From contig JALAGF010003024.1 in the NCBI GenBank assembly GCA_030167865.1, positions 1 to 47,145 of the forward strand: 47,145 nucleotides of DNA, written 5' to 3'. The DNA is from Craspedostauros australis. Taxonomy: Eukaryota. Position 1 is the stretch's first letter. The number at the start of each line of letters is the position of its first letter. Below, piece by piece: positions 3,901 to 45,591 of this stretch. The translations under genes and the position numbers were made by a program. The notes beneath the pieces were generated by a model that was not told the origin of the DNA, did not search any database, and saw nothing but the letters and a program-made list of their open reading frames with translations.

Positions 3901-4307
3901 TCCATCCGCGCGCATTGTCGCTGTGCCGTAATGAGGCCAGTTTGGGAGCCTTGGAATTTCAACGTCTTGCCGCGGATGACGAAGACGACGAGGTGGCTGA
4001 CGACGACGACAACAACAACAGCAGCAATAACAAACGGTCCAAGCTGAATGCAGCACCACATCAAGAACCCCAGCAGATTGCAAACATCGAACCGATCCCC
4101 AACATCCTCCAGGGGCTCGATCGTTTGTACATGATGCAGCTGATGTGCGGCGCCGTGTCGCACACCAGGAATCACAGCGGAATCGAACCAAGCCGTGACA
4201 TGGCCATGTCGTTGCAGTGCGAGTTGATGCCGGAAATCAACCGCGTTGATGGCAGCATGGACCTGGAGTACAAGTCCTGCATACAATCGCTGCTGGCATC
4301 ATCCTAA
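918..4307 (+). CDS. Chromatin-reader protein with zf-CXXC, PHD finger and a probable Tudor-like domain (1129 aa)
   Basis: RCGKCNGCNKPDCGQCVECKRKKKYGG..KQACIKRVC fits the zf-CXXC pattern (~1122-1241). CAGC...ILCDGCPREYHLKCCIPPLECVPEGTFLCFDC fits PHD C4HC3 (~2270-2520). FIGRLVRMHSPFGNMYHDGRIV...CLVTF resembles Tudor (weaker). In-frame stop at 900-902 precedes the ATG. Basic NLS-like stretches are present. Confidence 0.85.
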   Translation: MKTPFVVTSPSDEAATQSRGSSSPLPSPLSSPLPSPLSTSPTTPPTTTPTGSTGKARKQRKNSRDFRSRCGKCNGCNKPDCGQCVECKRKKKYGGDGSSKQACIKRVCRNPQPTGSGRLRSAKRKSAEGGATTSAIATTTTAGTKPTQKPTQKAGNGNSKLSEVRTTGKVANKVTNKAPSKAATPSSPSSPTSTSQMSEKAAAITSPSPKMVTSKQTANASANATAKSKPKAPARAATTPKTKTNANKQNKQPNKKMPVAKTNENPPRKQQSAAARPYVHTTVTRTEITAPNMARDDRPQHSCTPRMSRSNSMAHDCNGDGMDDAHNGAINGVANAVNGSNQHTIQASRFRPSSLLDCHPPLPYTKAWGPYFQRLHRRQRIQTQQAEPSAVTTNENNSNNSHNGTATTTNHVASASNNNVSNNNGNTKQESTTSPTYMYGIQVPKTMPIGICAGCLKGDVPMPLAIPLPDLEPSNVASTSTPASEPSTPIQQVPKARGDTVILCDGCPREYHLKCCIPPLECVPEGTFLCFDCCPKGTAKFLEDYFVKHEAARDKMDDGNNFARALIQEDLDLTLQDRTAATNLVRERIRYPVSEIAHMHGKDPDAFIGRLVRMHSPFGNMYHDGRIVCAEITDDGDDTACLVTFPAGQNGRKTTVTKWMRLEEHSLAVSERVIWGKFLSHKKKHARHASSSHAKVTAPPSPPLSSQVPPPSSPPDTPQSSSSTITAESIGAIAPKSKAAIAATPHAAFATQGDDSVANDHSESNASIAQRKRKRGSATKQTLAHAAGRQEEDIAYRAAELMCWKPAVTWNRNARELVPVMELCTPDSGIIRYVDEGYEVDDPSGSKSQSSTQAQDRKMRSARRGRTVAPPPPASRKASKASTPTTSNSGSRNGKNEKTAGDATAMTKRTRLQHRPMTLILGQILASTEFKYLRIKTEVMDRPSPDFFDPDVREHLRNDPNFAMLQYQWQLFQVELSEVDRVRYYSRQLPLHEPFHPRALSLCRNEASLGALEFQRLAADDEDDEVADDDDNNNSSNNKRSKLNAAPHQEPQQIANIEPIPNILQGLDRLYMMQLMCGAVSHTRNHSGIEPSRDMAMSLQCELMPEINRVDGSMDLEYKSCIQSLLASS

Positions 4308-6578: not shown

Positions 6579-9013
6579 ATGGTGACCACAATCACATCGG
6601 CAACACGCCACGGCAACCAATTCCGCCGCATATCGTTGCTCGCGCTATCCTGCGTCAGCGTCTGCACATCCGAGGCGTTGATCCCGTACTCGTCATTTGC
6701 CAACACCTTCCGATCACGCGCATCGGGCCCTGCTCTGTTCGTGCAGCGCGTTCGCGGAGGCTCCACTTCGCCGGTCGACACATCGACGCAACGGAACGTG
6801 CTCAGCGAGGCCGCCGCCGATGATTTCGAACTCATCGACATGGCGACCGGCAATGGCGTCTCCAACGGCAAGACCAACGGCCATCATCTGCCAAAGAACG
6901 ATGCCATCATCATGCCGTCGCCCACCATCGACGCCGTCGTGCCGGCCAAGTACATTGCTGAAACTAAATTGCCAACGGACATTGGACAATTCCAGCTGCG
7001 TGCCTACCGCACGGAACGCGGTGCCAACGAATTCACGGGCACCGAACCATGCGTCATTTATTCGCCGCAGAAGAGCCCCTTTGGCACGGACGGCCAGTGG
7101 AGATCGTGCGTGCCGGTCCGCATCCATGATCAGTGTCTCACGTCCGAAGTCTTTCGGAGTCAGCGGTACGTGAATGCCATTGCTGCTATTGCACAAACTG
7201 CGTTACATCCAGTCACAATTTTCGATCTGCTTTTACGTGTGCACTCACATCTCATCCTTTTGCCCATCTCCTTATTCCATGTTCTTGCGCATCAATCACT
7301 GCATCATCGCCATTTCGTCACGTGCCGGAATTCAATTTCGTCCGCATCGTTGGATTGATCGTCAACTGAAATTGATCGCATGGCAATGACGTACTCTGAT
7401 CGCGGACACTGCATCACGATCTGGACACGCACGCACCATGTTTCGCAAACAAACCAATGAATGAATGGACGCCATGAAATATCACGCATGACGCGACTGA
7501 AAATTCGCATGATGCTACAAAATGCGACGCCACAATATCCCACAATGCCCCATAATACACTCACTCATGTACGAACGCAGATGCGACTGCAAGGAACAGC
7601 TCAAGATGTCGCTCGAGTACATCCAGGAGAACGGCGGCGCCATCATCTATCTGCAACAGGAGGGACGCGGCATCGGTTTGGCCAACAAGATCGCCGCGTA
7701 CGCCATGCAGGACGTCGGTTTCGACACTGTCGATGCCAACCTCCACCTCGGTTTCCCCGATGACGCCCGCGAATACGGCGTCGTACCATCCATCCTCGAC
7801 GACATGAAGATCAACAGCATCCAGCTCATGACCAACAACCCGCGCAAGGTCATGCGTCTGCGCGACATAGGCGTCCACGTCACCAACGCCCTCCCAGTCG
7901 TCGTGCCATCCACAAATCCTTACAACCACCGCTACCTCGCCACGAAGCAGGATCGCATGGATCATCGCAACCTCAAAAGCGTCCTGTCCAACGGTGCCAT
8001 GGCACCACGACGCGTTCTCGCGGAATCCTACATCAACGAAGGTGAAGAAATGTGCGCCAACGCCGTCACGGTCTCATTGATGGAGGCCAACGCGAATGGC
8101 AGCAGCAGCAGCAGCGACACAACCAGCGATGATGAACTCGGTGTCACCGCCCATGACGATGGATACTGTTTCGGCAAGCAGTCCGTCATCGATGCCATCC
8201 AAGCCGTCAAGGAAGGCAAGATGGTGTGCGTCGTGGATGACATGAACCGCGAAAATGAAGGTGATCTCATCATGGCTGCCGATGCCTGCTCGCCGTCCGA
8301 CATGGCATTCATCGTCAAGTACTCCAGCGGCGTCGTCTGCATCGCCATGGAAGGACACCGCATGGATGAGCTGCAGCTTCCCGCCATGGTGCACAACAAC
8401 GAAGATCCAAAGGGAACCGCCTTCAGCGTCACCGTCGATGCCACCAAGGAACATGGTACGTCATGATTATGAACGAATGATTGTTGTGAATGGAATGGAA
8501 TATTAATGTGGGTGGATTATGTGTTGGTCATCAAAGGATTGCTGCTCACACATTCAACGCGAAACCCGCCGAACTCTTGTCGATCGTCACTGCGAACGCA
8601 ACTTGCAAATTGTGACTACAACATGACGAATTCTCAACCAATGCATCCATACGTCTTCTTGCACAGGCATCACAACCGGAATCAGCGCCACCGACCGCGC
8701 CAAGACCGTCCGCCTCCTGGCCGATGCCGACTGCAAACCTTCCGATTTTGCCAGACCCGGCCACATCTTCCCGCTGCGAGCCCAAGAGGGCGGTGTCCTG
8801 ACACGTGACGGACACACGGAGGCTGCCATCGACCTCTCCGTATTGGCCGGGCGATCGCCTTCCGGAATCCTGTGCGAAATCGTCTCGGAGGAGAATCCCA
8901 TCGAGATGATGAGGTTACCAGAGATGAAGCGATTTTGCAAAAAGTACGGCTTCGTCCTCACCAGCATCGTCGACTTGCAGCAGTACCGTCGGGAAACAGA
9001 AGGAAAGCAGTAG
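6579..9013 (+). CDS. ribAB: Bifunctional GTP cyclohydrolase II / 3,4-dihydroxy-2-butanone-4-phosphate synthase, probably plastid-targeted; exons 6579-7165, 7581-8455, 8667-9013 (~602 aa)
   Basis: Splicing GT-AG introns 7166-7580 and 8456-8666 restores VRIHDQCLTSEVFRSQR|CDCKEQL, QEGRGIGLANK and LMTNNPRK (GCH II), and VVDDMNRENEGDL, TAFSVTVDA..HG|ITTGISATDRA, RPGHIFPL and RDGHTEA (DHBPS). Stop TAG at 9011-9013 is in frame. N-terminus has a hydrophobic signal ending SEA-LIP, then a Ser/Arg-rich transit-like stretch. Confidence 0.93.
7166..7580 (+). other. Intron 1 of ribAB (GTACGT...GCAG)
   Basis: Removal joins SQR to CDCKEQL and completes the Zn-binding Cys motif of GCH II. Confidence 0.9.
8456..8666 (+). 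other. Intron 2 of ribAB (GTACGT...ACAG)
   Basis: Removal gives the conserved DHBPS motif HGITTGISA. Confidence 0.9.
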
Positions 9014-12368: not shown

Positions 12369-13458
12369 GATGGTGTCTGCAATGCTTCGCTGCTCCTGCT
12401 TATTGTGTGCTTAGATGCCTGCTCTGATGTTCTGATGCTTGGATGCCTTGTTGCCTTGTTGCGTATCTGATGCTTCATGGTATGACCGCGAGAAGGAGGA
12501 AGTGGAGGAACGTGAATGCTCTTGTGTATTCTCGTGTGACTTTTTTGGGATCTGCTGACTCTGGCCTGTCGTTTTGCGTTCGTTCATGCGCGGTTTCAGA
12601 GCACAAGCAGTCGTACCCGTCGTATTTCTGTATTTTGAGGCAAAAGCTGTGATTTAGCACCCAACCACGCAAATGCTATATTTCTGTTTTAGGCACCCTT
12701 CTGACACTTTCCACTCCTTTTTCTTGTTGAGTTGTCAATTCCAAAGACACGAACAGATTCAGCTTCTTCCAACAGCATGAAACCCCTTCTAAGGTATCAT
12801 TGGATGTCCAGTACCACCGTTGTTCTGTATCGCAAATATAGGGACTTACTATTACGTTGATCAGCACGCCTGCATCGTAGTGGTGTCATGTTGAATCCCG
12901 AACAGCTCACAACTGCGACCTTCGCCCATGCAGGATTCGACAATCTACTCATTTTTTCCCTGTGCCCGTTTTCGACTCCATGATTTATCATTGGGCTTAA
13001 TGTATTATGAATGCGCTGTATCAATGACATATGCTTCTGCGCCCTTTCTTATACTTGGAGTAATTTTGGCCCAAACATCGATTGTGAAGGCGACATTTGT
13101 TGAAGAAACGCATGGTTTTTTGCGATGCATGGACATCACAATTAACCGATTCGGGTGACGATGCGCAGTACTATTGGAGTATCGCGGGGTATCGTTGGGC
13201 ACTGGACAAAAAGTCGCCACAGATGAGGGCGACGACTTGCACCACGATCACGCTTGGTTTCGCCAACGAACCCACACAGGAACACAGATCGCAGGCCGCC
13301 ACACCCACCTCCGACAACCCCAAGGGAGAAAAGGTCATGCGGCGCCAGCCCTCTGTCATTTCCTCACTTTGCTCGCACACAAACAACATCGCAAACAACA
13401 TCACAAACAACATCGCAAGCAACATCGCGACACATCACGAGCAACACCAAGGACCACC

Positions 13459-16400
13459 ATGGCGCCGCCAACCGACGAAGCAAACGACAAGGAACCACCT
13501 TTGGGTGAGGCTCCTCCCGATGACGCCGATGATTGCGATGCCAACGACGGCGACAGGCTTCTCGTGCATCCGTCAGCTTCGCCGCCAACAGAGACGGACC
13601 AAGATGGTGATGCACCTCCGCTGCCGCACGGCAACGGCAGCCAGGACACGGACGCAAGCGATGGCACTGCACCAAAACAGGCCCCGTCGCCAAGCGCCCA
13701 CCAACTTGCACGCAGCCTCTCCATCAAGCCCATGCGTAAATCCCAGAGAGCCAGAGCGGCTGGGGCCGTGCCAACCACGGAGTCGGCTGCTGGGCGGAAT
13801 CAAAACGCCATGATGAAGACCATGATCATCCGCGCCGCGTCAGGATCGAACGGTCAAGGAGGAGACGCTCGAAATACGTCCAACCGACGATACCAACGCA
13901 TCTTCCAATCGATGCAGACGGAGCAACCACTGTTGCCCGAATCGTACGAGGACACCGATCCTGAGATGCCATCCCAGAAGAAGTCAGGCGACTTCGCCGG
14001 TGTTGGCGCCAACGCCGTGACTGGCTCGCCGGGAGCAAAGACCGGCGATCACAAGGACGGCAAGGCCCACCATTCCGGGCATTCCGCACATGACGAGCAT
14101 CTTGTCGACTTGGAGAACGCTCGCGCAGCTCCAGGCGTGCAACGATCTGAAGGCGCCGCGATGGGGCAAGCTCCTGCAACTCGGCATTCCGTGCTCTCCA
14201 ACGTGGTGCCCCGATTGGACGCTGCGGGCGAGACTGAGAACGGCATTTCCGACCACGCGCCACCGCAGGATCAGCAACCCGCCGCTGCAGCAGATAATCC
14301 ATCCACGCCTGCGGCCACGAGCTTCCCGGCCGTCCTTGCGCAGAATGCAATGACGGAAGACGAGATCGTCACGGCCATCCAAGAGACGATCGCGCAGCAG
14401 TTCGCCGCCGCGCAACGCCAGGGGCCCGAAGTGCACCTCGCACAAGCGCTTCAGGTTCAGGCCGTCAATGGAGACGAATTTGATGGCAGTGTGGAGGAAG
14501 CCATGGACGAAGCCGTCAACAAAGATATCGACGATGATGTTGAGGCCGCAGGTGTCGCCGCTGCCGCTGGCGTTGACGATGGAGCAAAGGCGCAGCGACG
14601 CATGCGAAACATCGTCATCGCCATCCTCTTCTGCCTCCTGCTCATCGTCGGAGCTGGAATTATTGTCGTCGTCTTCCTCCGAGACAATGGTGAGAGCGGC
14701 ACTCCAAGCAACGCCAGCAACAACAAAGATGTTGCCAAAAACGCCACCGAGACAACCTTCGCCCCATCACCGTTGGAATCCAATCAACCGTCTCCGCACC
14801 GAACAACGCCTCCATCGACACTCCCAACCGCATCTCCAACATCCTCTCCATCTGCATCGGCTACGTCCAGCAGCCCCACCACGCAGCCGACACGCAGCTT
14901 TGACCAGACAGATGAATTCTTCGCCATCCTCGATATCATGGCGGCGGCGTTGGCTGGTGCTCCAACCTTCATCGATATGGCAAAGATTGCAGATCCCAAC
15001 AGCGTTCCGCACCGAGTGTTGGACTGGATGGCAAACGTCGACAAAACCACCACGCCAAGCATCCTCAACGACAACGATGTCGACGGCAACGATGGTGACG
15101 ACAACGATGGTGACGACAACGACTTGGACCTAATCTTCGACCCAGTATTCGTCTTCAACGATCGCGACACCGACACTCCAAAGAAGCTCAAGCACCTCAT
15201 CGAGCTGTACAGCGTCGTCAGCATCTACCTTTCGATGAATGGAGCCAATTGGGATCGGCAGAATGACTTCATGTCACCGGATGTTCACATGTGCCAATGG
15301 AACACATTCGCCTCTGGCGTCCTGTGCTATGAAAGTGGATTCGTGAGGAGACTTGCTCTCTACAGCAACAGCATCGGCACCGAGATCGATCCGGCCATCT
15401 ACAACCTGGTGGAGATGATGGAGTTGGACTTGTTCAAAACTGCTTTACAAGGGCGGCTCTCGTCTCACCTGGGCAGATTGAGCCGGCTGACTCTCCTGCT
15501 AATTGCGCGGACCGAACTGGTTGGAAGCATCCCCACCGAAATTGGCTTGCTGACCAATCTGGAACGCTTTGCTGGCTACGGCACGTGGTTGGACGGCAGA
15601 ATTCCAATTGAGATAGGCAAATGCACCGCGCTCGAGAGATTCCAGGCGTACGAATCACAGATTCGTGGTTCGATTCCAACCGAGATCGGGAAATGCACAA
15701 AGCTACGACAGTTTGAGATCTACGAGTCAAGAGTCTCCGGCAGCATTCCAAGTGAAATTGGCAACTGCACCAGCCTCGCCGAATTCGAAGTCAGCAACAC
15801 CGACATGACAGGATCCATCCCAACTGAATTCGGAAACCTCGCAGCCATCAAGGTGATGGATCTGTTCGAAAGCGACTTCGATGGGGTGATCCCCTCGGAG
15901 CTTGGAAACTTGGAAGCGATGACAGCGCTTCGATTGCACGACAACGCATTCAGCGGTTCCATTCCATCGGAGATCGGCCGGCTGAAGAAGTTGACGTCGC
16001 TCCGGTTACGGGACAATCGCTTGGATGGCATCATCCCAACCACAATTGGAAACTTATCCAGCTTGGTGTTCTTGTACTTTTCGAATAACTCATTGAAAGG
16101 ATCCATTCCGTCCGAGCTTGGATATCTTGCCAAGCTGGAATATGTCACCAGCACCGACAACTCGTTGGAGGGATCGATCCCATCCGAAATCGGAAATGCG
16201 ACGAAGATAAGATCTCTCACCTTCCGCAGCAACATCTTGACTGGGGCACTGCCATCGGAGATTGGAAATTTGGCATCCCTTACTTTTCTATCCGTGTCCA
16301 GCAATCAGCTCCGCAGCAGCCTGCCCACCGAGATAGGGCTCATGACCGGGCTGACAAGCCTGTGGATGCAAGCAAACGATTTCACAGGGCCCTTACCCAC

Positions 16401-16929
16401 TGAGCTGGGCAAGCTGCAATCACTGAGTTTGATCTCGATGCATAGCAACAAGTTCAGCGGGCGCCTCCCCTCGGAGCTGGGTCAGATGCAGGCACTGACA
16501 AATGCGAGACTCAACTCGAACAACCTCACGGGCGAGCTTCCGTCCAGTCTCGGCGACCTTCCGATCATCAAATGGTTCAATGTGAGCGAAAATCAGCTGA
16601 CCGGATCGATCCCATCCGAGATTGGCGAGCTGACCACGCTCACCACCTTGGATCTCAATACCAACCTGCTCACCGGCTCGATCCCGTCTGAGCTCGGGAA
16701 GCTCCGGAAGATAAGCACTCTCAACCTGGGCCACAATCTGTTCAACGAGACGCTCCCAACTGAATTATCAGATCTGACTTCGCTGACGACGTTCAGCGTC
16801 TTCGACACATTCATCACGGGCGATCTCGATCCACTCTTTTGCACCGCAGACCCTCGGCTTGCAAACCCAGATATCCTCGAAGCGAGCAGTTTCACGAACT
16901 GTTCTTGCTGCGACCGAAGAGGCCGATAA
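13459..16929 (+). CDS. Leucine-rich-repeat receptor-like membrane protein: disordered N-terminus, TM, Pro/Thr linker, ~20 plant-specific-type 24-aa LRRs (~1156 aa)
   Basis: First ATG (MAPPTDEAND) at 13459; the ORF-track start at 13174 is TTG. TM is IVIAILFCLLLIVGAGIIVVVFL. Cap region NGANW...CQW..SGVLC, then repeated LxxLxxLxLxxNxLxGxIPSEIGxL, ending CSCC. No kinase domain. Confidence 0.9.
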   Translation: MAPPTDEANDKEPPLGEAPPDDADDCDANDGDRLLVHPSASPPTETDQDGDAPPLPHGNGSQDTDASDGTAPKQAPSPSAHQLARSLSIKPMRKSQRARAAGAVPTTESAAGRNQNAMMKTMIIRAASGSNGQGGDARNTSNRRYQRIFQSMQTEQPLLPESYEDTDPEMPSQKKSGDFAGVGANAVTGSPGAKTGDHKDGKAHHSGHSAHDEHLVDLENARAAPGVQRSEGAAMGQAPATRHSVLSNVVPRLDAAGETENGISDHAPPQDQQPAAAADNPSTPAATSFPAVLAQNAMTEDEIVTAIQETIAQQFAAAQRQGPEVHLAQALQVQAVNGDEFDGSVEEAMDEAVNKDIDDDVEAAGVAAAAGVDDGAKAQRRMRNIVIAILFCLLLIVGAGIIVVVFLRDNGESGTPSNASNNKDVAKNATETTFAPSPLESNQPSPHRTTPPSTLPTASPTSSPSASATSSSPTTQPTRSFDQTDEFFAILDIMAAALAGAPTFIDMAKIADPNSVPHRVLDWMANVDKTTTPSILNDNDVDGNDGDDNDGDDNDLDLIFDPVFVFNDRDTDTPKKLKHLIELYSVVSIYLSMNGANWDRQNDFMSPDVHMCQWNTFASGVLCYESGFVRRLALYSNSIGTEIDPAIYNLVEMMELDLFKTALQGRLSSHLGRLSRLTLLLIARTELVGSIPTEIGLLTNLERFAGYGTWLDGRIPIEIGKCTALERFQAYESQIRGSIPTEIGKCTKLRQFEIYESRVSGSIPSEIGNCTSLAEFEVSNTDMTGSIPTEFGNLAAIKVMDLFESDFDGVIPSELGNLEAMTALRLHDNAFSGSIPSEIGRLKKLTSLRLRDNRLDGIIPTTIGNLSSLVFLYFSNNSLKGSIPSELGYLAKLEYVTSTDNSLEGSIPSEIGNATKIRSLTFRSNILTGALPSEIGNLASLTFLSVSSNQLRSSLPTEIGLMTGLTSLWMQANDFTGPLPTELGKLQSLSLISMHSNKFSGRLPSELGQMQALTNARLNSNNLTGELPSSLGDLPIIKWFNVSENQLTGSIPSEIGELTTLTTLDLNTNLLTGSIPSELGKLRKISTLNLGHNLFNETLPTELSDLTSLTTFSVFDTFITGDLDPLFCTADPRLANPDILEASSFTNCSCCDRRGR

Positions 16930-18097: not shown

Positions 18098-19055
18098 GGT
18101 GGGTTAATGTGGATGTGGATGTGGAATGCAAGTTGGCTGGAGCGGGATGGGTCGAGAGAGTAGTGGTGGGAGGATTATGGCAAGATACTCGCAGTGTACG
18201 AAGTGGAGGATGTCGATGGTGGTGATGGGCAACCCATCCGAGATCTGCGATGCTGTGTTTCTCACTGGATGTTGCTGGTTGGATTTGGAGGAACGTCCGT
18301 TGGGGACACAAACACATGAGACACGCGTCGAATCTACGCCTATCGAATTCTGTGGAATTTTGTGGATGCTTCTTCTACAGACATCACGGTACTGATGTTT
18401 CCGTGCGCTGTTGAGTCCTGGATTTAGCGGTGAAATGATACGTGGTGATTTTTAGGAACCCTGACGCAGAGAACGAGACGAGACAAAAGGTATCGTTCTT
18501 GTTGAGGATGTCTGTCTGTTGTTGTGTTTGTACGACTGTTTGCTTGAATAGCCGATGTGTCTGTCATTCCATTTCTATCCGTTTGTTCAACTGTCACGTT
18601 TTCAGTTTTAGTCCGATCAGTCTGTGAGAAATCGGTTGACATACAGACGATTCGAATGGCGAAAGAAGCAAAGAGAAAAAGCTCTCGTTTGTCTCTCTTC
18701 GCGTGATGACCACAAAGAGGATCTCCACTCACCGTGACGACATGCTGATGTGATGTCGTGGTCGCGTCGCGACTGGTGGTTGGTGGTTGGTCGCTGATGA
18801 TGTCTGGGCTGATTGCTGGATGTGAGCCATTGTCTGAAACCACAACAATCCACAAGTTTGCAAGAAAGCAGAGCGAGAGAAGAGCATCGACATATTATAC
18901 ATACACACGTATTCTATAATACCATACGATCTACTCATATCGTATCGTAGAATACCATCTGAGCACGAGCTATCATACCTGCTGATTGCGTTGCATGCAT
19001 TGCGGTCATCCACAGAGAAGACATTTGAGAAGATAGAAGCAAGAGGTGATTGAAG

Positions 19056-21197
19056 ATGCTGTCTCTGCGCGATGCCGTCTGCAAGATCTCGGTGAGGGGC
19101 TGCGCTCGCAATGGCGCCGTTCGGCACTTCGCGAAGGGCAACGCTGCCATCAATGGGAGAGCCTCTCTGTCGTCAATGGCATCGTCATTGTCACTGTCGT
19201 CAATGGCATCTGCATCGGCCTCTACTGGAGCCATGGCGTCGCGCGTTCTGGCGACCGCGGACAGCCCATTCCATCAGGCAAAGCGAAGCTTGTCAGGATT
19301 GCCGCATTCGGCATCTCCGTCTCCATCGCTGGCAACATCGCTAGCACCATCAGCATCGACACAATCAGCATCGACACAATCAGCATCGACACAATCATCA
19401 ACATCAGCAATAGCGGCAGCAGCAGGGTCGATAAGGACCTTGTCGACGACGACAGGCGCAGAGCCCTCGGCAGAAGAAGGCGCAAGCGAGGGGGAGGAGA
19501 TCAAGTACTCCAAGCACGAGTACCCAACGCGGAAGGAAGCGCCGATCATCTCCAGAAACACCCCCGCGCAAGCCAAGCAGACGCCCTCTGCCGCATCCCG
19601 ATCGCCCAACGATCTCAAGATCCCCAATCACGATCCCTTCGACGACGCCTGTTCGCTCACTGACGACGAGATCTCGACGGTTCTGGACCAGCAGAAACAG
19701 GAACAGGAAAGACTCACGTCCTCCATGAGCTCATTCCCCATCACCGATGCCACGCCCTCCTTCATCCCGCCCAACATCTCCTCCGACCAGCTCGAGGCAC
19801 CGAAAACGCAGATCACCGAGCTCCCCAACGGCGTCAGGGTCGTCTCGCAGGATGTCTACAGCCAGATGTGCACGGTCGGTGTCGTCGTCAATGCTGGCAG
19901 CCGCCACGAACAAATACAGGGCACCGCCCACCTCCTCGAGTCCATGGCGCTCCTCTCCACCAGGGATTACCCGGATGCCATGGAGATCCCCAAGCTCCTC
20001 CTGGATTGGGGAGCCACGCACTTTGCCAACGCCAACCGTGAGCAGACGCTCTACTGCATCGACGTCCTGCGCCCCAACGTGGAAAAGGCCATGCATCTCA
20101 TCAGCCAGGTCGTCCTGCACCCAAACCTATCCGAGGAGGAGGTCGAGCAGTGCAAGATGCTGCTGGCCTTCCAGGCGGAGCAGCCCATTCCGCAGGTGGT
20201 CCTCGGCGAGGCTGTGCATGTGGCGGCGTACGGCGCGGAGCAGCAGCTCGGACGTCGCCACTTCGCGACCCTCGACAACATTCCGAACCTTTCGGTCGAT
20301 TCCCTTCGCGACTTCTGGCGCACCAACATTCTGCAGAATCCGGAGGGCCTCGTCGTTTCGGGGGCTGGCATCGGCCACAAGCAGCTCGTGGAGATGGCAC
20401 AGCGCTACTTTGGAGACATGGAGCAGAAGTCGTCTCCCCTTGCTGTCCCATCTATATACCGCGGCGGAACGTGCACGATCGAACCCATGGAGCCGCTGCC
20501 GATGGAGGAGATGCCAGACGCTCCACCAGCCGTTCATGATGCTGCATCGGCCGACACGAAGGAAACGGACGAAAGCATCATGCCCCAGCCCGAGGATTAC
20601 TGCCACGTCACGCTGGCGTTCCCCGTCGGCGGCTGGCACTCCCAGCATGAGATGGTCACGGCCTGCGTCCTCCAAACCCTGCTCGGCGGCGGCTCGTCCT
20701 TCTCAGCTGGTGGTCCAGGCAAGGGCATGTACACGCGCATGTACCGCAACGTCCTCAACCGCTTTGGCAAGGTCGAAAGCGCCGAGGCCGTCACGTCCTT
20801 TACCGATGAGACTGGATTGATGGGCGTCTCGGGCAGCACGGCGGCGCCCGAGATGGTCCACGACCTCGTCATGATCCTCACAGAGCAACTCATCAACGTC
20901 ATCGCCAAACAAATAACCGACGAAGAGCTGCTGCGTGCCAAAAACATGCTCAAATGCAACGTCCTCAGTCAATTAGAAAGCCGCCTCGTGCTCTTTGAGG
21001 ATATTGGACGGCAGGTGTTGACGTACGACAAGCACGAGAGTGCCAAAACGACGTGCGCGCGCATTGACGCCGTCAAGGCGGAAGACATGAAGATGCTCAT
21101 CGCCAAGATGCTGCAGTCGGGACCCACCATCGCGGCGACGGGCAAGCATCTGGACAAGGTTCCCAATGATCGCGAAGTCAGCCGGTGGTTGCGATGA
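19056..21197 (+). CDS. MPPA: Mitochondrial processing peptidase alpha subunit (peptidase M16 family, non-catalytic)
   Basis: TQITELPNGVRVVS, AGSRHE, degenerate HLLES (no HxxEH), the diagnostic glycine-rich loop LLGGGSSFSAGGPGKGMYTRMY, and LESRLVLFEDIGRQVL. Arg/Ser/Ala-rich mitochondrial-type presequence. ATG at 19056; the track start at 19050 is TTG. Confidence 0.93.
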   Translation: MLSLRDAVCKISVRGCARNGAVRHFAKGNAAINGRASLSSMASSLSLSSMASASASTGAMASRVLATADSPFHQAKRSLSGLPHSASPSPSLATSLAPSASTQSASTQSASTQSSTSAIAAAAGSIRTLSTTTGAEPSAEEGASEGEEIKYSKHEYPTRKEAPIISRNTPAQAKQTPSAASRSPNDLKIPNHDPFDDACSLTDDEISTVLDQQKQEQERLTSSMSSFPITDATPSFIPPNISSDQLEAPKTQITELPNGVRVVSQDVYSQMCTVGVVVNAGSRHEQIQGTAHLLESMALLSTRDYPDAMEIPKLLLDWGATHFANANREQTLYCIDVLRPNVEKAMHLISQVVLHPNLSEEEVEQCKMLLAFQAEQPIPQVVLGEAVHVAAYGAEQQLGRRHFATLDNIPNLSVDSLRDFWRTNILQNPEGLVVSGAGIGHKQLVEMAQRYFGDMEQKSSPLAVPSIYRGGTCTIEPMEPLPMEEMPDAPPAVHDAASADTKETDESIMPQPEDYCHVTLAFPVGGWHSQHEMVTACVLQTLLGGGSSFSAGGPGKGMYTRMYRNVLNRFGKVESAEAVTSFTDETGLMGVSGSTAAPEMVHDLVMILTEQLINVIAKQITDEELLRAKNMLKCNVLSQLESRLVLFEDIGRQVLTYDKHESAKTTCARIDAVKAEDMKMLIAKMLQSGPTIAATGKHLDKVPNDREVSRWLR

Positions 21198-38576: not shown

Positions 38577-40092
38577 TGCGATTGCGTTTGAGATTGTTGT
38601 GTCGGTAGAGCTGAGCTTCGCGATAAGAAGATGTCCCGATTCGTAGATCTCTTCCGCTTCTTGTCCTTCGTCGTGCTGGATCAATGGAGTGGTAGTATGG
38701 AGAGTGCTTTGGTGGATGCTATTTCTATGTGTGTGCGATTTGAAATGAGGCTATGATGAAGGATTGGGAAAATGGAAAGTCGATGATTTGTTGCCTGTTG
38801 AGAGTCGGTCGCTTGGGTGATCCTCTGATTCTTTGGCCATTCCTCACTCAAATGCCGACTGTCCTGTTGTGGAACTATGGTGGAGTACTCGGCCAGCTTC
38901 AGTCCTTTCTGTCCTTTCCACCCTCTGCATCGCAGTTGCTGTGGATGGTGTCGACGTTGCGGTCGCGATGGAGATTGCGGCAGAATGTGACGAGTTGGGT
39001 GAGATGTGTGTCGTGAAGAGGACGCCAAAATGTGGCGTTCCGAAATTGGATCTTGGATGGCACTCGCCATTGCGACATGAAAACGACACGGGACGATGCG
39101 GACTCATTCACAATTTTGTGGAGGAGTCTTGTGACAAAGATGGAGCGGTTGATTCGTTCGACTTGAACAATGCAGCATTGGTCGACCAAGTCGAAAATGA
39201 TCCACACAGTCAAAAATGACAAATCGTCCACGAATCAAGGACGATTTGGAAGGACTGTTCTTGGAACATCATCGGATATGAACAGTGTCGGTTTCCTTAA
39301 GTATCGGCGTGTCGCAGGGGCTTTGATGACGGTTGCACATGGCACAAATGGTCATTGTGTGGTCGTGTATTGCGTGTCGTTGTCGTGGCCTCCTTGTAGA
39401 TCGCACAGACACACGAGTCGTTGTTGTTTGGCAATAGCACACGAGATGGCGCCAAGATTTCGCGCGCAAAGAAGACCACAGAGAGAGAGGGCAGAAAGCA
39501 ACAAGAAGAGTGACTGAGACAGCGAAAGCAAGCGAGGAGGACACAGACAAACAACAAACCACAAGAGCAGTGGTACGATCTCCTCGGAGATTGCCAACAA
39601 GCGCGAAAGCAAGGAGAACAGGCGAGAAGCGGCGGAAAGGACGCGCTGTCATACATTCCTTGTGCGCCCCTTGTTTCAGACGTGAGACCATCATTCCTCA
39701 AGAGTCGGTCGTACCAGAGCATCGTCGCGCCATAGAGTCGCACTAATACGACCCATTATAGTACACAAACCGACAACAAGAAGACCCTCCAACCGGCTTC
39801 AGCAGTCTGGATAGCTTCTTCGCAATCCTGGCTCGCCACCAAAAGTCTCGAACGAAGATCACCAAACGTCACATCCACATCACATCAAATCGCATTGCAT
39901 CGCATTGCATTGCATTGCATTAAACGGCATTGGGTTGGATTGACTTGGAAAGAAGCGGAGATCACATCGGCTTCAGGAGGAGCAGACCAAATCGGTGCAC
40001 AGGAGTCCAGAGTATTATATTCAAATAGGTATAATACAATATACTGCAATATACTGCAATATTCTGCAATAGATCAAAGCCGGACATAAAGA

Positions 40093-43000
40093 ATGAATAC
40101 TCCAAGTGCACAAGCCGTAGTGGAGACGATGCCCGTCGTCACGCTGCCGCAAACCGGCGCCGATGTCGGCGTTGGCGTCCCTTCGGTCTCGGCCGAGCCG
40201 GAGACAGCAGCTGCGTCGCCACAGCATCCACCCTCAGATCCACAATCGCAGCAGCAACCACAACAGCCGCAGCAGCAACCACAACAGCCGCAGCCGCAGC
40301 AACCACCCTCGAGCTTGCTGAGGGATTGGGCACCAGCGACGGTCAGTGATGGGTCCAACGCGCCGCCGGTCGCGCCTGCTGTTGTGCTCAATGAACGATC
40401 GGCCGAACACAGATCATCCTCCACAGGATCGAGGACCAACTACCCCGTGGCCACCTTCGTCAGGAGCCTGGTCCGGACGTCGGTGGAGATCAGGGATCAC
40501 ATCTACGCGTCCGCCATTCCAGCCACCCCGGGAGGCCCTGCCTCGTCCGCGGAGGCTGCGGATGGTCTGGGTCCGCTCAATCCGGGCCATGCAGGACACG
40601 TGGCCAACGATCCGCTGTCCATCCGAAGCGCACCCGCGCCGATGATCGCGGCCCTGTCCGCTGCCACCCTCACCTCCGGTCGATCCATGAACCAGCTGGT
40701 CACCGTGGACGACATACGCCTCACCCATCTCCCGGAAGACATGGAAGCTGCCGCTCACCACCATCCTCACGCAGACAATTTGCATGGGGCCGCATCGATC
40801 TCCATGGATGAGGCAACTGCCGACTTCAACAGCGGCAACAACAGCGACGCGCATTCCGCCGAGTTTGTGCTCATTAACGGCGACTTGGTGGAAATCCCGG
40901 CAGCCAACCTCGCGGAGCCGGATGATGATGACTACTACTCTCGGCGCAGGCGGCGGTACGGTGGCTACAACGACGACGATGATAACGACAATGACAACGA
41001 CAACGGCACTCAGCGATCTGACGCCGATGCCTTGCCACAGAGCTGCAGACCAAGGACTTCGCGCGTGCGTCGTGGCGTCAAGGGCTTCAAGAAATGGATT
41101 AAGAAGATCAAGAGAAAGCGTGATAAGAACCACCAGCAGCAACAGCAAAAACAGCAGGTGCAGCAAGTGCAACCAACCCGAGATACGTCATTTCGACAAG
41201 CACCGGACGAGCCGATGGAACAACAACTGCAGCAGCGACAGCTTCAGCAGCAAATGTTCGACTCCCTTCGCAGACATCCAAATTCGTCCTACTCAGAACC
41301 GTCAGGACCATTTGCCGAGCAGTCGAACGCGTCGCTATCGATTGCTACGCCATCGCATGACTCCGCCAGTGTCAACATCAGCGCCAGCGCCGTGGCTCAC
41401 GCGCCCATACAGCATGTCATGTCGGAGCGCTCCATCGACTCTCTCAATATCGATATGATGGGAACCAGCGCTCTGCAGACATCCGCATCAACAGCGATGC
41501 CCGCACGCAATGCTCTTTCCCTGGGTGCCGCGTCATCCACATCGGCCCTGGCCTCGGCAGCAGCGGCCATCGGAGCTGCGCGCCTCACCAGCAACCATTC
41601 GCCGCAGCGCAACAAAAAGCCACCGCCCAAAAAGGAGCCCAGCAAACGCAAGAAGCGATTCTCCTTCCTTCGCGACAGCGAATCCAATCGCAAGGAACCT
41701 CCACAGCAGCTACCGCCGACACCGCCTCCGTCGGTGCAGCCACCAGAAATAACCACCACGTCACCGTCCCTGCCACAGGCAGCTAATTCTGTGGCAGCAA
41801 TGCCGCCGACATCTTTCGCTGCCCTGCCAGAGCCGGCATCTGCAGCGGCCGCAACTGTTGCTGCCATGCCGTCATCGGCAGCCGTAGCGCAAGCCACAAC
41901 CTCCATGCTCGCACCTGCTCCGCCACCGATCGACATAACGCCGCCCCAAAACAGACGCACATTGTACCATGATGGCCCAGCAGCATTCTCGATGGGCGCG
42001 ACCGCTTCTGCAGTCCCGTTGCCACCTGCGGTAGCATCTGCACCAGCGGCAGCAGCCGCAGCAACCAGCTCCTTGGACGCATTGTACGAGCCATCCTCGT
42101 TTGGGGCATCCGCCACGCCAGACTCGTATCCTTTCGGATTGGACCAGGCCCAGCGCGTGTCCAGCGTTGTGGGTGAGGCCAGTTTTATTGGCAACGCCGA
42201 TCAGTTGCTGGAGGCCGGTGTGCTGCCAGAAACAACCATGGCAGCCGAAGCCTACATCGAGGATAGGATGGACGATTACGACAAGTACGACAAGAAGGAC
42301 GGCTACCCATACTACCGCAGCGTGGTGCCACGTGACGCCGATTACAAGGTCGACAAGAGCGACGCACCCTGCGTGGACGCCATGCTTTCCCGCGCTGACG
42401 AGTTTGCGAATGACATCGAGCAGGACATGGCCCCCATCGTGGAGCCACTCCCGCTCAAGGCAAGAGGTAAATCAGACGGTTCCACCATCCCGTTGTCGGA
42501 AGCAACGCCCGATGACATTGACGTTCACAACGATGTGCTCAAGGTCGTCATGGTTGGCGCGCAGACCGTGGACAAGTCCGGTTTGGCACGGGCGATGCGC
42601 GGATCGACCAAGAAGCCACGCAAGCGCAAGAATCTCGGTGTCGACGTTCACATGTGGACGCCACCCAACAAGGAGCAGGTCCAATTCTCAATTTGGGATG
42701 TGCAGGGTGCGAGCAACGACGCCGTCAAGCTGGATGGCACCAACTTCGGAGCGCATCCCGGTACCCAATCCCTCTTCTTTTCCGATCGCTCGCTCTACTT
42801 GCTGGTGTGGGACTTGGCAGCCAACAACCCCAAGGCAACAAGACGGACGCTGGGCAAGAGCAAACGCAACTACGACGATGATGACAGCTGCAGCAGCAGC
42901 TCCGACGAAGAAGACGATGACGAATACGACGACAACGACTACATGCTGGAAGAGCGCAACCGCCAGGCAGACCGCGCCCTCCGATCGGACATCGAAGACC

Positions 43001-45591
43001 GCGTGCTGACGTGGGTGGACTGCATCGCACGCCGCGGCTCGCATTCTGCTATTCTGCCCATCGGGTTGGTCCCGTCCGGCATGACGCCGCATGAGGCCAG
43101 GCGACGTTGCGACTTGATGGCGCAGCTTCTTGTCGACTACACGCAGAACTTCACGTCCGGCATCCCACCCAAGGTCCTCATGGGAGCGGAGACGTTGATC
43201 TGCGTCTCCACAGACACCAACATGGGCATGGATTTGTTGCGAGAAACCATCGTGGATATCGCCACCGATTCCAGCCATTCCGTCTTTGATCATGTGGGCA
43301 CCCCCGTTCCGAAGGGAGCCGTTCATGTCTTGGAGGCCGCGCGTCTCTTGAAAGAACGCCACAAGCTCATCCTCGTCGACCATCTGATGGTGGAGCTTCA
43401 CACCATCCTCACGGTGAACGAAGTCGTCGCGTGTTTGCATTTCCTTTCAGCCATCGGTGAGCTGTTCTACTACGGTGATGAAAATGAGGACGTGCTGTCG
43501 CGATACGTCATCCTGTCCCGCAAATGGCTGGTCAGCGCACTGTCCTGCATCTTGCGCAACGACCTGAAACGCGAGCTCGCCGAGACCAGGCAGTTCATGA
43601 ACATGCAATGCTTGTACAGCGACCAGGAGTTTCAGGAGAACCACATCATCCAAACCTTCTCATCGCACAGCTCCAGCTGTCCTCTGTTATCCTCCGTCGA
43701 CACGCTGATGCTGTGGCAGAGCATGAATTTCATGCGCCAGGCGGCAGACAGCACATCCGAGCTGCAGGAGAGTTCCACGACGGAATCGACCATCTTTGGA
43801 TTCTTGGAACGTCTGCTCGTCCAATCCGGAGTGTTCTTCCCGCTCGAGATCGACGATCCCTTCCAAACAAATGACTGCGTCTACTTCGTGCCATCTTTGC
43901 TGGCGACCGCCGACACGAAGGAGATGTGGACGTACAAATCCAGCGATTCCTGGATGACGACGTTGTCGCATTCGTGGCTCTTCCGCGATGGTGCCCCGGT
44001 TGGACTGATGGAGACAGTCACAGTCGGATTGCTGCATGATCTGTACGAATTCTCGCGAACCGTATCCAGCAGGCCGTTCGATCAGCACCAGCATCACCAC
44101 CACCAGCAGTACCTGCATGATTCGCGCAATTCCCGCAACCTGAACCGATCCAGCACATTCCCATTCGCACAGAATTCGCTGACAGACTTCGTCACATCTC
44201 ACGATGATGGCGAACCGATCGGGAACATCAAGATCCATCAGATCATGTGCTGGAAATTCAGCATCATGGTCAAGATCAGCTGCGTCTTCCCCGACGGAGA
44301 CTCGTTACGGGAGTCCTTCGTGGAGATCTTCATCACTATCGCGGACCAATCGTCACCCTACTGCGTCGCATCTGACATCATGAGACCGACGATGCAGCGT
44401 CTGATCGTGAGCGGAAAGGGTCAGGTTGGACATCATGGCATCAAGTTATGGAAGGGAGGATATTCCCTTGTGCTGGACTCCATCAAGGCCAGTCTCGCCA
44501 ACTGCACCAACGTCGATCGGCAAGTCGTCTGCCCCGAGTGCTTGGCCCACGCGCACCCCAGCGGTGCGAGCACGTGGAGCTGGGATAGCGTCAGAGCGGC
44601 TGCAACCAGCGGTTCCTCCACCATCCGCTGCATGCGCGGCCACCGAGTCGATGCCAACATGGTGTGCGGAACCTGCCGCCCCGTGTTATCGGAACTCCAC
44701 GCTGGCGCAGGAGCTGGTCATTCCATCACAAAGAAATCCGTGTGCGACCTGCTCCCGTCCGTCGTCGTGGTCGCATTGTGGGATGCCGACACGCAGTGCT
44801 TCCGCAACGTCGGTTCTGGATTCGTGGTGGATCGCAAGTACGGCCTGGTCGTGACGGCCGGGCATATCCTGTTCAACATGGTGCCGGGGCATGACTTTGG
44901 AGCCCCGTACTTTGGCTTGAAGAACACGAAGATCGCCGTCGGTATCATCCCAGGGGGATGCGCCGGCGACGAGAACACCGCCGACAAGACCGCATTCTTC
45001 CGATACTTCGCTGAGATCGTTGCCAGCGACATCCACAGAGTTGATGCGTGCGTGCTGAAGATCACAACGCGCATGGAGAACGACGTCGCAAGCGACGCGC
45101 AGATCGCGACGCAATCGGAGACGTTGGTGGACTTCCAGAAGGAGGAGCTGGCAGCGTTGAAGATCACGCGGCGGTACGAGCTGGAGGAGACCGTGCGAGT
45201 TCTGGGATTCAACCAGGGCGGCGAAGGATTGCTGGAGCAAGGCAAGCACGTGAACCGTTCCGCCGACTTTGCGAAGGGGTACATCTGCAAACGCTTCACC
45301 GCATCCGACGATCATTCCAACAGCAGCGATGAATCATCCACAAACGGAGGCGAATTCTCTCCGCGAGAAGAGATAGTGATCATGTGCCCCACCATCATTG
45401 GCCACAGTGGAGGAGCGGTCGTCTCGGACGAAGGCAAGGTGATTGGCATCCTAAGTCGTGTGGATCCCGCTGAGAATCATCGGTGTTACCTTGTCCCCGC
45501 CAGCGAGATCAAGATTTTGATCTCTTCCGCCAAGCGGACCGTCAACGCCATGTCCAGATCCGTCGACGCGGTCGATGCCGTTGCTCGTTAA
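40093..45591 (+). CDS. ROCO-family protein: disordered N-terminus, Roc GTPase-like domain, COR, Cys/His cluster, C-terminal trypsin-like serine protease (1832 aa, single exon)
   Basis: Roc: KVVMVGAQTVDKSGL, LGVDV, FSIWDVQG, HPGTQSLFFSDRSLYLLVWDL (from ~42541). COR-like: LHFLSAIGELFYY, YVILSRKWLVSAL, YFVPSLL. CPEC...CMRGH. Protease: GSGFVVD, VVTAGH, VDACVLKI, GHSGGAVVSDEGKVIGI. Confidence 0.88.
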   Translation: MNTPSAQAVVETMPVVTLPQTGADVGVGVPSVSAEPETAAASPQHPPSDPQSQQQPQQPQQQPQQPQPQQPPSSLLRDWAPATVSDGSNAPPVAPAVVLNERSAEHRSSSTGSRTNYPVATFVRSLVRTSVEIRDHIYASAIPATPGGPASSAEAADGLGPLNPGHAGHVANDPLSIRSAPAPMIAALSAATLTSGRSMNQLVTVDDIRLTHLPEDMEAAAHHHPHADNLHGAASISMDEATADFNSGNNSDAHSAEFVLINGDLVEIPAANLAEPDDDDYYSRRRRRYGGYNDDDDNDNDNDNGTQRSDADALPQSCRPRTSRVRRGVKGFKKWIKKIKRKRDKNHQQQQQKQQVQQVQPTRDTSFRQAPDEPMEQQLQQRQLQQQMFDSLRRHPNSSYSEPSGPFAEQSNASLSIATPSHDSASVNISASAVAHAPIQHVMSERSIDSLNIDMMGTSALQTSASTAMPARNALSLGAASSTSALASAAAAIGAARLTSNHSPQRNKKPPPKKEPSKRKKRFSFLRDSESNRKEPPQQLPPTPPPSVQPPEITTTSPSLPQAANSVAAMPPTSFAALPEPASAAAATVAAMPSSAAVAQATTSMLAPAPPPIDITPPQNRRTLYHDGPAAFSMGATASAVPLPPAVASAPAAAAAATSSLDALYEPSSFGASATPDSYPFGLDQAQRVSSVVGEASFIGNADQLLEAGVLPETTMAAEAYIEDRMDDYDKYDKKDGYPYYRSVVPRDADYKVDKSDAPCVDAMLSRADEFANDIEQDMAPIVEPLPLKARGKSDGSTIPLSEATPDDIDVHNDVLKVVMVGAQTVDKSGLARAMRGSTKKPRKRKNLGVDVHMWTPPNKEQVQFSIWDVQGASNDAVKLDGTNFGAHPGTQSLFFSDRSLYLLVWDLAANNPKATRRTLGKSKRNYDDDDSCSSSSDEEDDDEYDDNDYMLEERNRQADRALRSDIEDRVLTWVDCIARRGSHSAILPIGLVPSGMTPHEARRRCDLMAQLLVDYTQNFTSGIPPKVLMGAETLICVSTDTNMGMDLLRETIVDIATDSSHSVFDHVGTPVPKGAVHVLEAARLLKERHKLILVDHLMVELHTILTVNEVVACLHFLSAIGELFYYGDENEDVLSRYVILSRKWLVSALSCILRNDLKRELAETRQFMNMQCLYSDQEFQENHIIQTFSSHSSSCPLLSSVDTLMLWQSMNFMRQAADSTSELQESSTTESTIFGFLERLLVQSGVFFPLEIDDPFQTNDCVYFVPSLLATADTKEMWTYKSSDSWMTTLSHSWLFRDGAPVGLMETVTVGLLHDLYEFSRTVSSRPFDQHQHHHHQQYLHDSRNSRNLNRSSTFPFAQNSLTDFVTSHDDGEPIGNIKIHQIMCWKFSIMVKISCVFPDGDSLRESFVEIFITIADQSSPYCVASDIMRPTMQRLIVSGKGQVGHHGIKLWKGGYSLVLDSIKASLANCTNVDRQVVCPECLAHAHPSGASTWSWDSVRAAATSGSSTIRCMRGHRVDANMVCGTCRPVLSELHAGAGAGHSITKKSVCDLLPSVVVVALWDADTQCFRNVGSGFVVDRKYGLVVTAGHILFNMVPGHDFGAPYFGLKNTKIAVGIIPGGCAGDENTADKTAFFRYFAEIVASDIHRVDACVLKITTRMENDVASDAQIATQSETLVDFQKEELAALKITRRYELEETVRVLGFNQGGEGLLEQGKHVNRSADFAKGYICKRFTASDDHSNSSDESSTNGGEFSPREEIVIMCPTIIGHSGGAVVSDEGKVIGILSRVDPAENHRCYLVPASEIKILISSAKRTVNAMSRSVDAVDAVAR

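Follow-up and report, generated by a model that had tools for sequence, protein, structure and literature searches.

A diatom ROCO protein with a predicted HtrA-like protease output and a degenerate P-loop in its Roc domain

How is a Roc-COR module used when the output domain behind it is a serine protease? This question is raised by a gene on contig JALAGF010003024.1 of the diatom Craspedostauros australis (GenBank assembly GCA_030167865.1), of which positions 1 to 47,145 of the forward strand form the stretch of DNA analysed here (hereafter the window). The ROCO-protease gene is one uninterrupted open reading frame (ORF) that starts with ATG, and in the predicted structure of its product an HtrA-like protease stands directly after COR-B, at the position that the kinase occupies in LRRK1 and LRRK2. 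The explanation that I favour, and hold to be moderately probable, is a cytosolic ROCO protein with an HtrA-like output, in which a pseudoGTPase Roc-COR scaffold would control the protease and which would act in stress, defence or cell death. Sequence comparison and structure models showed the domain order as a disordered N-terminus, Roc, COR-A, COR-B with a site of three cysteines and one histidine (CCCH), a linker and the protease, and this predicted arrangement is conserved across diatoms. The individual features are as follows.

40093..45591, plus strand: whole ORF, 1832 amino acids plus stop, a single exon as read.
40093..42162, plus strand: residues 1-690, low-complexity N-terminus, probably disordered judging from its composition, which is rich in Ala, Ser, Pro and Gln and has polyglutamine runs.
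42163..42516, plus strand: residues ~691-808, conserved acidic segment before Roc, aligning with N. inconspicua P0014 and with P0002.
42517..43269, plus strand: residues ~809-1059, Roc G-domain, from Pfam Roc and a model aligned to the Roc domains of MbRoco2, LRRK1 and LRRK2; predicted local distance difference test (pLDDT) mostly >85.
42556..42579, plus strand: residues 822-829, degenerate P-loop GAQTVDKS, Asp827 standing where GxxxxGK[ST] has its second Gly.
42856..42930, plus strand: residues 922-946, acidic, Ser-rich, disordered insert within Roc, pLDDT <50.
43297..43839, plus strand: residues ~1069-1249, COR-A, from Pfam COR-A and an alignment to MbRoco2 RocCOR that runs through model residue 471.
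43852..44679, plus strand: residues ~1254-1529, COR-B-equivalent region, from structural alignment to LRRK1/LRRK2.
44530..44643, plus strand: predicted metal site C1480-x2-C1483 ... C1513-x3-H1517 at the end of COR-B, translation CPEC...CMRGH, pLDDT ~90.
44683..44727, plus strand: residues 1531-1545, disordered linker between COR-B and the protease, pLDDT <50.
44722..45546, plus strand: residues ~1544-1818, S1C (HtrA/DegP-type) serine protease, from Pfam Trypsin_2 and structural matches.

The Roc-COR part was recognised faintly by Pfam, with Roc at residues 817-907 narrowly missing its cut-off (E 1e-5; 26.2 bits, cut-off 27) and COR-A at residues 1104-1171 falling short of its own (E 1.7e-5; 25.2 bits, cut-off 35.3). 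Because single-sequence matches to Pfam and to the PDB are weak, the identity of this part rests on a family profile and on predicted structure. A profile built from an alignment of 50 family members (alignment A1) matched LRRK2 (E 6.1e-24), LRRK1 (7.4e-24), the M. barkeri Roco structure 4wnr (2.7e-16) and the C. tepidum Roco structure 6hlu (2.7e-14) in the PDB. An AlphaFold2 model of residues 800-1832, built with the same alignment, reached a pLDDT of 83.2 and a predicted template modelling score (pTM) of 0.74, and Foldseek ranked its nearest structures as LRRK1 (E 2.8e-19), LRRK2, bacterial and archaeal Roco structures, and then DegP, DegQ, DegS and HtrA1. Structural alignment extended over 310 residues of MbRoco2 RocCOR (Z 27.3, root-mean-square deviation (rmsd) 3.1, model residues 7-471), 504 residues of LRRK1 632-1224 (Z 25.9, model residues 10-730) and 490 residues of LRRK2 1329-1867 (Z 25.1, model residues 11-734). 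Residues ~809-1529 are, in the model, a complete Roc-COR-A-COR-B unit, and the Roc and COR regions that an earlier note had read from the letters of this DNA are backed by both lines of evidence. The acidic insert in Roc sits between a beta-strand ending in LVWD and the next helix, and LRR-type relatives, that is, family members with leucine-rich repeats (LRR), show an acidic insert there too; a role in phosphorylation or regulation is conceivable. A second loop predicted to be disordered lies in COR-B at residues 1326-1359; its His/Gln-rich stretch (HQHHHHQQ..., 44076-44169, residues ~1329-1359) is longer and more His-rich in the relative P0002.

A protease of chymotrypsin fold had been proposed for the C-terminus in the earlier note, and its triad coordinates proved exact: His1591 (44863-44865), Asp1651 (45043-45045) and Ser1772 (45406-45408, within GHSGG) lie in columns that are invariant or nearly so, and 148 of the 150 near-full-length family members have all three residues. 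Pfam Trypsin_2 matched residues 1574-1786 above its cut-off (E 1.1e-11, 46.1 bits; cut-off 27.6), and the protease part of the family profile matched HTRA1 in the PDB (E 9.7e-9). A second AlphaFold2 model, of residues 1470-1832 (pLDDT 88.2), was closest to Deg1 (3qo6, Z 22.1), DegS (21.9), Rv0983 (21.5), MamO (21.4) and HtrA3 (21.1), and Foldseek placed it with HtrA-type proteases at E about 1e-11 to 1e-12; the larger model aligned to DegP with Z 22.4 over model residues 745-1019. By its modelled double beta-barrel fold, the protease belongs to the HtrA/DegP (S1C) group. The chain ends 14 residues beyond the modelled protease domain, the last 29 residues of which are a single helix, and no PDZ domain follows the protease in Pfam at E <= 1. 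In NCBIfam, the search returned HtrA and MarP fragments, all sub-threshold. Weak protease-domain matches to the PADLOC system RT-Protease_XI (E 4.3e-5) were not taken as membership.

Between COR and protease, the earlier note had seen a Cys/His cluster reading CPEC...CMRGH...CGTC. The first two elements are real and conserved (C1480, C1483 and C1513 are invariant and H1517 nearly so in alignment A1, and the CCCH set is kept in 148 of the 150 near-full-length members), while the trailing CGTC is not conserved in the family. The cluster does not form an independent region between COR and protease either, as it falls within the part of the model that superposes on the end of COR-B in LRRK1/2. On the model, it is best taken as a metal-stabilised end of COR-B and not as a separate zinc-finger domain, with metal binding as a prediction.

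The breadth of the family was assessed by an exhaustive phmmer search with residues 800-1832 against 1.84 billion representative proteins; it returned 437 proteins at E <= 1e-3, of which 217 reached E <= 1e-30. The ESM Atlas returned one match, with Trypsin_2 in 100% of its members and Roc in 26%, which is probably the family's own cluster. Pfam found no LRR, kinase, death, TIR or PDZ family at E <= 1 anywhere in the Craspedostauros protein, and there were 0 LRR-pattern matches. The absence of LRR and kinase domains, as described in the earlier note, is therefore correct for this protein, but that of LRR holds for its clade only, since sister paralogues in diatoms are LRR-Roc-COR-proteases. 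Pfam scans of 33 more distant relatives, together with precomputed domains, suggest that diatoms have at least three forms built on a shared Roc-COR-CCCH-protease core. One has LRR (for example P0133, P0137, P0148 and a Fragilaria crotonensis protein). Another, rare form has WWE and U-box domains and was found only in P0186, P0210, P0224, P0225 and P0240, plus P0204 (U-box only) and P0229 (WWE only), all from metagenomes or assemblies. The third, which includes the protein studied here, has a long low-complexity N-terminus without a known domain. In P0186, P0224, P0225 and P0240, Arg replaces the catalytic His and the Ser motifs are altered in alignment A1, and these four are probably pseudoproteases. 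The Odontella transcriptome MMETSP0015 holds both an LRR-type member with a canonical P-loop (P0148) and an LRR-less member in which the P-loop reads GDSIPGAA (P0107), which argues for old, co-existing paralogues and not simply for lineage-specific losses.

These relatives allowed the nucleotide-binding site of Roc to be compared across the family. In P-loop nucleoside triphosphatases, the backbone of the second Gly contacts the beta-phosphate and there is no room for a side chain. The Craspedostauros protein carries Asp827 at this position and retains the G3 motif DxxG (as DVQG), and its G4 position reads GLVPS, without Asp; the LRR-type counterpart is A[ST]F[DN]D. Aligning 264 relatives to the core profile and keeping those that cover at least 850 of its 1033 positions left 150 proteins, among them the Craspedostauros protein itself and some near-identical cluster members. 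Just 41 of these 150 proteins have a canonical GxxxxGK[ST] P-loop. A tree of the 150 (FastTree, LG model, 904 columns, midpoint root) contained the following clades, given with their Shimodaira-Hasegawa-like support.

Clade of the Craspedostauros protein: 95 tips, support 1.0; second P-loop Gly position Asp in 65, Glu in 16 and Gly in 3; P-loop canonical in 1; catalytic triad intact in 95/95.
LRR clade: 33 tips, support 0.79; P-loop canonical in 33/33; G4 Asp in 33/33; triad intact in 33/33.
WWE/U-box clade: 6 tips, support 1.0; P-loop Lys lost in 6/6; triad intact in 4/6.

In the first clade, the second P-loop Gly is accordingly replaced by Asp or Glu in 81 of 95 members, and the G4 position carries Pro followed by Ser or Glu. 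The lineages nearest to this clade, P0084 and Attheya P0093, still have Gly there, and, given the midpoint rooting, the acidic residue appears to have arisen once and to have been maintained since. A conserved carboxylate at this position should oppose nucleotide binding, which leads to the pseudoGTPase reading, and that the residue is conserved as an acid, and has not decayed at random, argues that an alternative state has been selected. Going by these motifs, Roc of this clade is probably a pseudoGTPase. The loss of P-loop and G4 residues throughout the clade makes gating by GTP doubtful, and with it the nucleotide-gated protease switch suggested in the earlier note; gating by dimerisation and a role in immunity or cell death, also raised in that note, are hypothetical.

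Under the proposed mechanism, Roc, with an acidic side chain in its P-loop and the G4 aspartate lost, would no longer cycle GTP in the canonical way, and Roc-COR, now a pseudoGTPase, would lend structure or promote dimerisation as a scaffold instead of timing by GTP. The scaffold would restrain the protease, and an oligomeric or conformational change would release its activity, much as in the allosteric switching of HtrA. Enzymes of the HtrA group are known to be switched allosterically. Roco proteins, for their part, change their oligomeric state (PMC6337361; this and the other papers cited here are drawn on in excerpt), and from the two together I infer that the hold of Roc-COR on the protease depends on conformation or oligomeric state. 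Input might arrive at the long disordered N-terminus, where the conserved motifs lie, or be supplied by a GTP-competent paralogue that carries LRR and pairs with this protein; such pairing is possible because the Odontella transcriptome has both the LRR-type P0148 and the LRR-less P0107 with its degenerate P-loop. By analogy with brown-algal ROCOs and with the LRR-Roc-COR-effector systems of bacteria, the protein may serve in stress, defence or cell-death signalling.

Several points weigh against this explanation. The role is drawn from analogy, and the neighbouring genes, which are eukaryotic, yield no hint of the function of the ROCO-protease. Both Roc and COR-A score under the curated Pfam cut-offs in this protein, and the Roc-COR part alone, compared with the PDB by pairwise sequence search, gave no Roco match (best E 0.07, to an unrelated protein). 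The P-loop Lys is kept in 91 of the 95 clade members (Lys828-Ser829 in this protein) and the switch II DxxG in this protein and 63 of the 95, and Roc of this clade may still bind nucleotide to some residual extent. The direction of change, from a canonical to an acidic P-loop, is conditional on a FastTree topology rooted at its midpoint.

The retained Lys-Ser and DxxG are also an argument for a working GTPase, in which the GTP/GDP state of Roc would gate the protease through COR dimerisation, as is thought for the LRRK2 kinase. A Roc fold predicted at high confidence and the canonical motifs of the LRR-type paralogues (33/33) fit this alternative, as does the variation of G4/G5 motifs among Roco proteins (PMC6337361). 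Against it, the Pfam Roc score is sub-threshold only in the clade of the Craspedostauros protein, compared with 51-59 bits in LRR-type members, and the aspartate that reads guanine at G4 is absent. Asp827 takes the place of a glycine that tolerates no side chain, and the same substitution by an acidic residue runs through the clade. For these reasons, I regard a working GTPase as unlikely here.

A housekeeping role in protein quality control would explain the protein in another way: the protease would degrade misfolded cytosolic proteins, and Roc-COR and the N-terminus would do no more than oligomerise and capture substrate, without any switch. The nearest folds are indeed those of the quality-control proteases HtrA, DegP, DegQ and Deg1, the family is conserved across diatoms with one or few copies in comparable named species (for example Epithemia, with the two LRR-less members P0062 and P0151), and no rapid expansion of paralogues was seen of the kind that immune receptors typically show. 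What speaks against this is the lack of the PDZ domains that most HtrA quality-control enzymes use, and a layout characteristic of signalling switches, with the protease always behind Roc-COR and sensor-type N-termini (LRR, WWE-U-box) in the sister clades. Some WWE-U-box members, moreover, persist despite having lost the catalytic His and Ser. Quality control as the main function is thus improbable.

A more elaborate version of the scaffold explanation can be formulated, and it is a long shot. Here, diatoms would run a two-component surveillance system similar to nucleotide-binding LRR receptors (NLRs), in which the LRR-type protein would be the GTP-competent sensor and the LRR-less protein its obligate partner or executioner, with a Roc domain locked by its acidic P-loop residue as a self-occupied pseudoGTPase. 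A heterodimer formed through COR-B would bring two proteases together and thereby start proteolytic signalling or cell death when viruses or bacteria attack or a bloom collapses. If true, ROCO proteins would thereby gain their first pseudoGTPase and their first pathway with a protease output and a defined logic.

The preferred explanation, a pseudoGTPase scaffold that controls an HtrA-like protease, places the protein in the cytosol and assigns a possible input to its N-terminus. A crude Kyte-Doolittle scan found no signal-peptide-like or transmembrane stretch (maximum 19-residue mean 1.53; 0.86 in the first 30 windows), in agreement with the earlier note, which had reported no signal peptide. 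A secreted or plastid HtrA/Deg protease was ruled out by this N-terminus without a signal-like stretch and by the fusion to Roc-COR. A Pfam scan of residues 1-690 at E <= 1 gave noise alone. The region nevertheless belongs to the ROCO-protease, as indicated by short motifs shared with the 96 closest relatives, many of which are N-terminally incomplete: LLRDW at residue 75 recurs as the pattern [ML]L[RK][DE]W in 45 of them, and YPVATF at 117 as YP[VIL][AS]TF in 54. The motif AYIEDR at residue 720, in the acidic segment before Roc, is present in 31 of the 96. Two basic clusters were also observed, KKWIKK at residues ~333-338 (41087-41104) and KRKKRFSF at residues 518-525 (41644-41667), recurring in 15 and 2 of the 96 close relatives, respectively; such N-terminal clusters may be localisation motifs or motifs of the membrane- or calmodulin-binding type.

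All of the above presupposes that the ORF is a single gene. It begins at the first ATG past an in-frame TAA at 40087, and a run of 1832 stop-free codons has a chance probability of ~6e-34 given the base composition of the window. The best match, P0002, is colinear with it from residue 73 to the end (residue 1832) at 65% identity, or 79% within the core, and for 150 of the 264 relatives a single protein spans 850 or more of the 1033 core positions. The MMETSP transcripts P0028, P0061 and P0085, labelled 'type:complete', likewise hold COR-A and/or Roc together with Trypsin_2 in a single ORF. At the locus itself, RNA evidence is limited to one 920-nt contig that matches 44771-45591 exactly and extends beyond the 3' end; the RNA nature of its sequencing run is a guess (word share 0.13), and the contig is uninformative on transcript structure. 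A further match from the same run was only 35 nt long and of low complexity. With a eukaryotic source and an apparently intron-split GTP cyclohydrolase II gene in the same window, separate genes, or exons across an unrecognised intron, could in principle have been read through as one ORF, but the length of the frame, its colinearity with P0002 and the recurrence of the same fusion in the relatives and in complete transcripts make such an artefact hardly credible.

Judged from its sequence context, the ROCO-protease gene is eukaryotic and nuclear, and it reads as that of a raphid pennate diatom, probably Bacillariaceae-like. All relatives that carry names are diatoms (Nitzschia, Cylindrotheca, Seminavis, Pseudo-nitzschia, Mayamaea, Epithemia, Attheya, Odontella, Leptocylindrus, Chaetoceros and Fragilaria), and none of 9 pattern matches was confirmed across 185,579 prokaryote genomes in a single-protein scan that detects close relatives only. 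A bacterial contaminant was ruled out by the diatom-only named relatives and by the intron-split neighbour gene. In this neighbour, a GTP cyclohydrolase II domain is split over the ORFs 6579-7358 and 7522-8466 on the plus strand (profile positions 4-59, then 53-164), the second of which runs on into a DHBP synthase domain; the pair looks like an intron-split riboflavin RibA/RibB fusion gene, pointing to a eukaryotic source. Other ORFs on the plus strand include ordinary eukaryotic genes for a 1129-aa protein with a CXXC zinc finger and a PHD finger (918-4307) and for a 715-aa M16 (insulinase-type) peptidase (19050-21197). A 1251-aa ORF at 13174-16929, 23 kb upstream of the ROCO-protease gene and on the same strand, has a large LRR region (LRR_14 E 7.6e-42, LRR_1, LRR_8, LRR_4). 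In 8 of the 15 ORFs of the window that were scanned, no Pfam family was found at E <= 0.001.

How the protein relates to known systems depends on which part of it is compared. LRRK1 and LRRK2 share the Roc-COR-A-COR-B tandem followed directly by a catalytic output domain, but their output is a kinase where the diatom protein has an S1C serine protease, and the latter lacks ANK, LRR and WD40 domains, has a degenerate P-loop and G4 and carries the CCCH site at the end of COR-B; identity in the structural alignment is 17-18%. The protease resembles HtrA, DegP, DegS and Deg1 (MEROPS S1C) in its double-barrel fold (Z 21-22, rmsd 2.2-3.1 over ~190 residues), the order His-Asp-Ser and the serine motif GxSGG, and differs from them in having neither PDZ domain nor signal or transit peptide and in being fused behind Roc-COR. 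In terms of the G-domain, the closest parallels are the pseudoGTPase p190RhoGAP (PMC5593906) and degenerate septins (PMC10731463), in which the fold is kept, the nucleotide motifs are eroded and the domain is put to structural or assembly use. The erosion in the diatom protein takes a different shape, a conserved change from Gly to an acidic residue with Lys-Ser kept, and its loss of binding is a prediction.

Roc-COR proteins with protease outputs have been noted before. Bacterial LRR-AP-GTPase(Roc)-COR proteins carry at least 24 kinds of C-terminal effector domain, trypsin among them, and are predicted to act in systems that counter invaders (Kaur, Iyer, Burroughs and Aravind, 2021; PMC8195603). 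They share with the diatom protein a variable effector placed after COR, but they are prokaryotic, have many paralogues with different effectors and a rapidly evolving N-terminal LRR region, while the diatom protein is LRR-less and has a degenerate P-loop; the likeness to the trypsin-effector Rocs is one of description and may not reflect homology of the protease modules. Closer in taxonomic terms, three 'group 3' ROCOs of brown algae have a C-terminal peptidase domain (IPR009003) and cluster with other SAR ROCOs (stramenopiles, alveolates and Rhizaria), some of which likewise have peptidase domains, and brown-algal ROCOs have been proposed as immune receptors (Front Plant Sci, 2024; PMC11378527). 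These group 3 proteins match the diatom protein in combining ROC-COR with a C-terminal PA-clan peptidase in a stramenopile, and in the excerpt consulted they are catalogued only, without analysis of motifs, structure or function. The excerpted Roco review (PMC6337361) nowhere mentions protease, peptidase, trypsin or diatom. In the literature searched, which excludes most subscription journals, neither a ROCO pseudoGTPase nor an experimental study of a Roc-COR-protease protein was found. The view of the earlier note that no characterised example is known hence holds as far as experiments are concerned, yet the architecture itself had already been catalogued: as far as these excerpts go, it is uncharacterised but listed twice in comparative papers, and it is not a new kind of system. 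What is new here is its breadth among diatoms, the three sensor variants, the CCCH site in COR-B, and a clade-wide acidic P-loop combined with a fully conserved protease.

Work on ROCO proteins has centred almost entirely on LRRK2 and a handful of models from bacteria and Dictyostelium, each with a working GTPase, and how Roc-COR controls its output is still argued. In the large natural family of diatom ROCO-proteases, the contribution of the GTPase cycle could be tested by comparison: the output is easily assayed, and there are clades with canonical, Lys-less and acid-substituted P-loops. The proteases that execute stress- and virus-induced cell death in diatoms are poorly defined, and the ROCO-protease family, with its LRR and WWE-U-box variants, is a candidate set.

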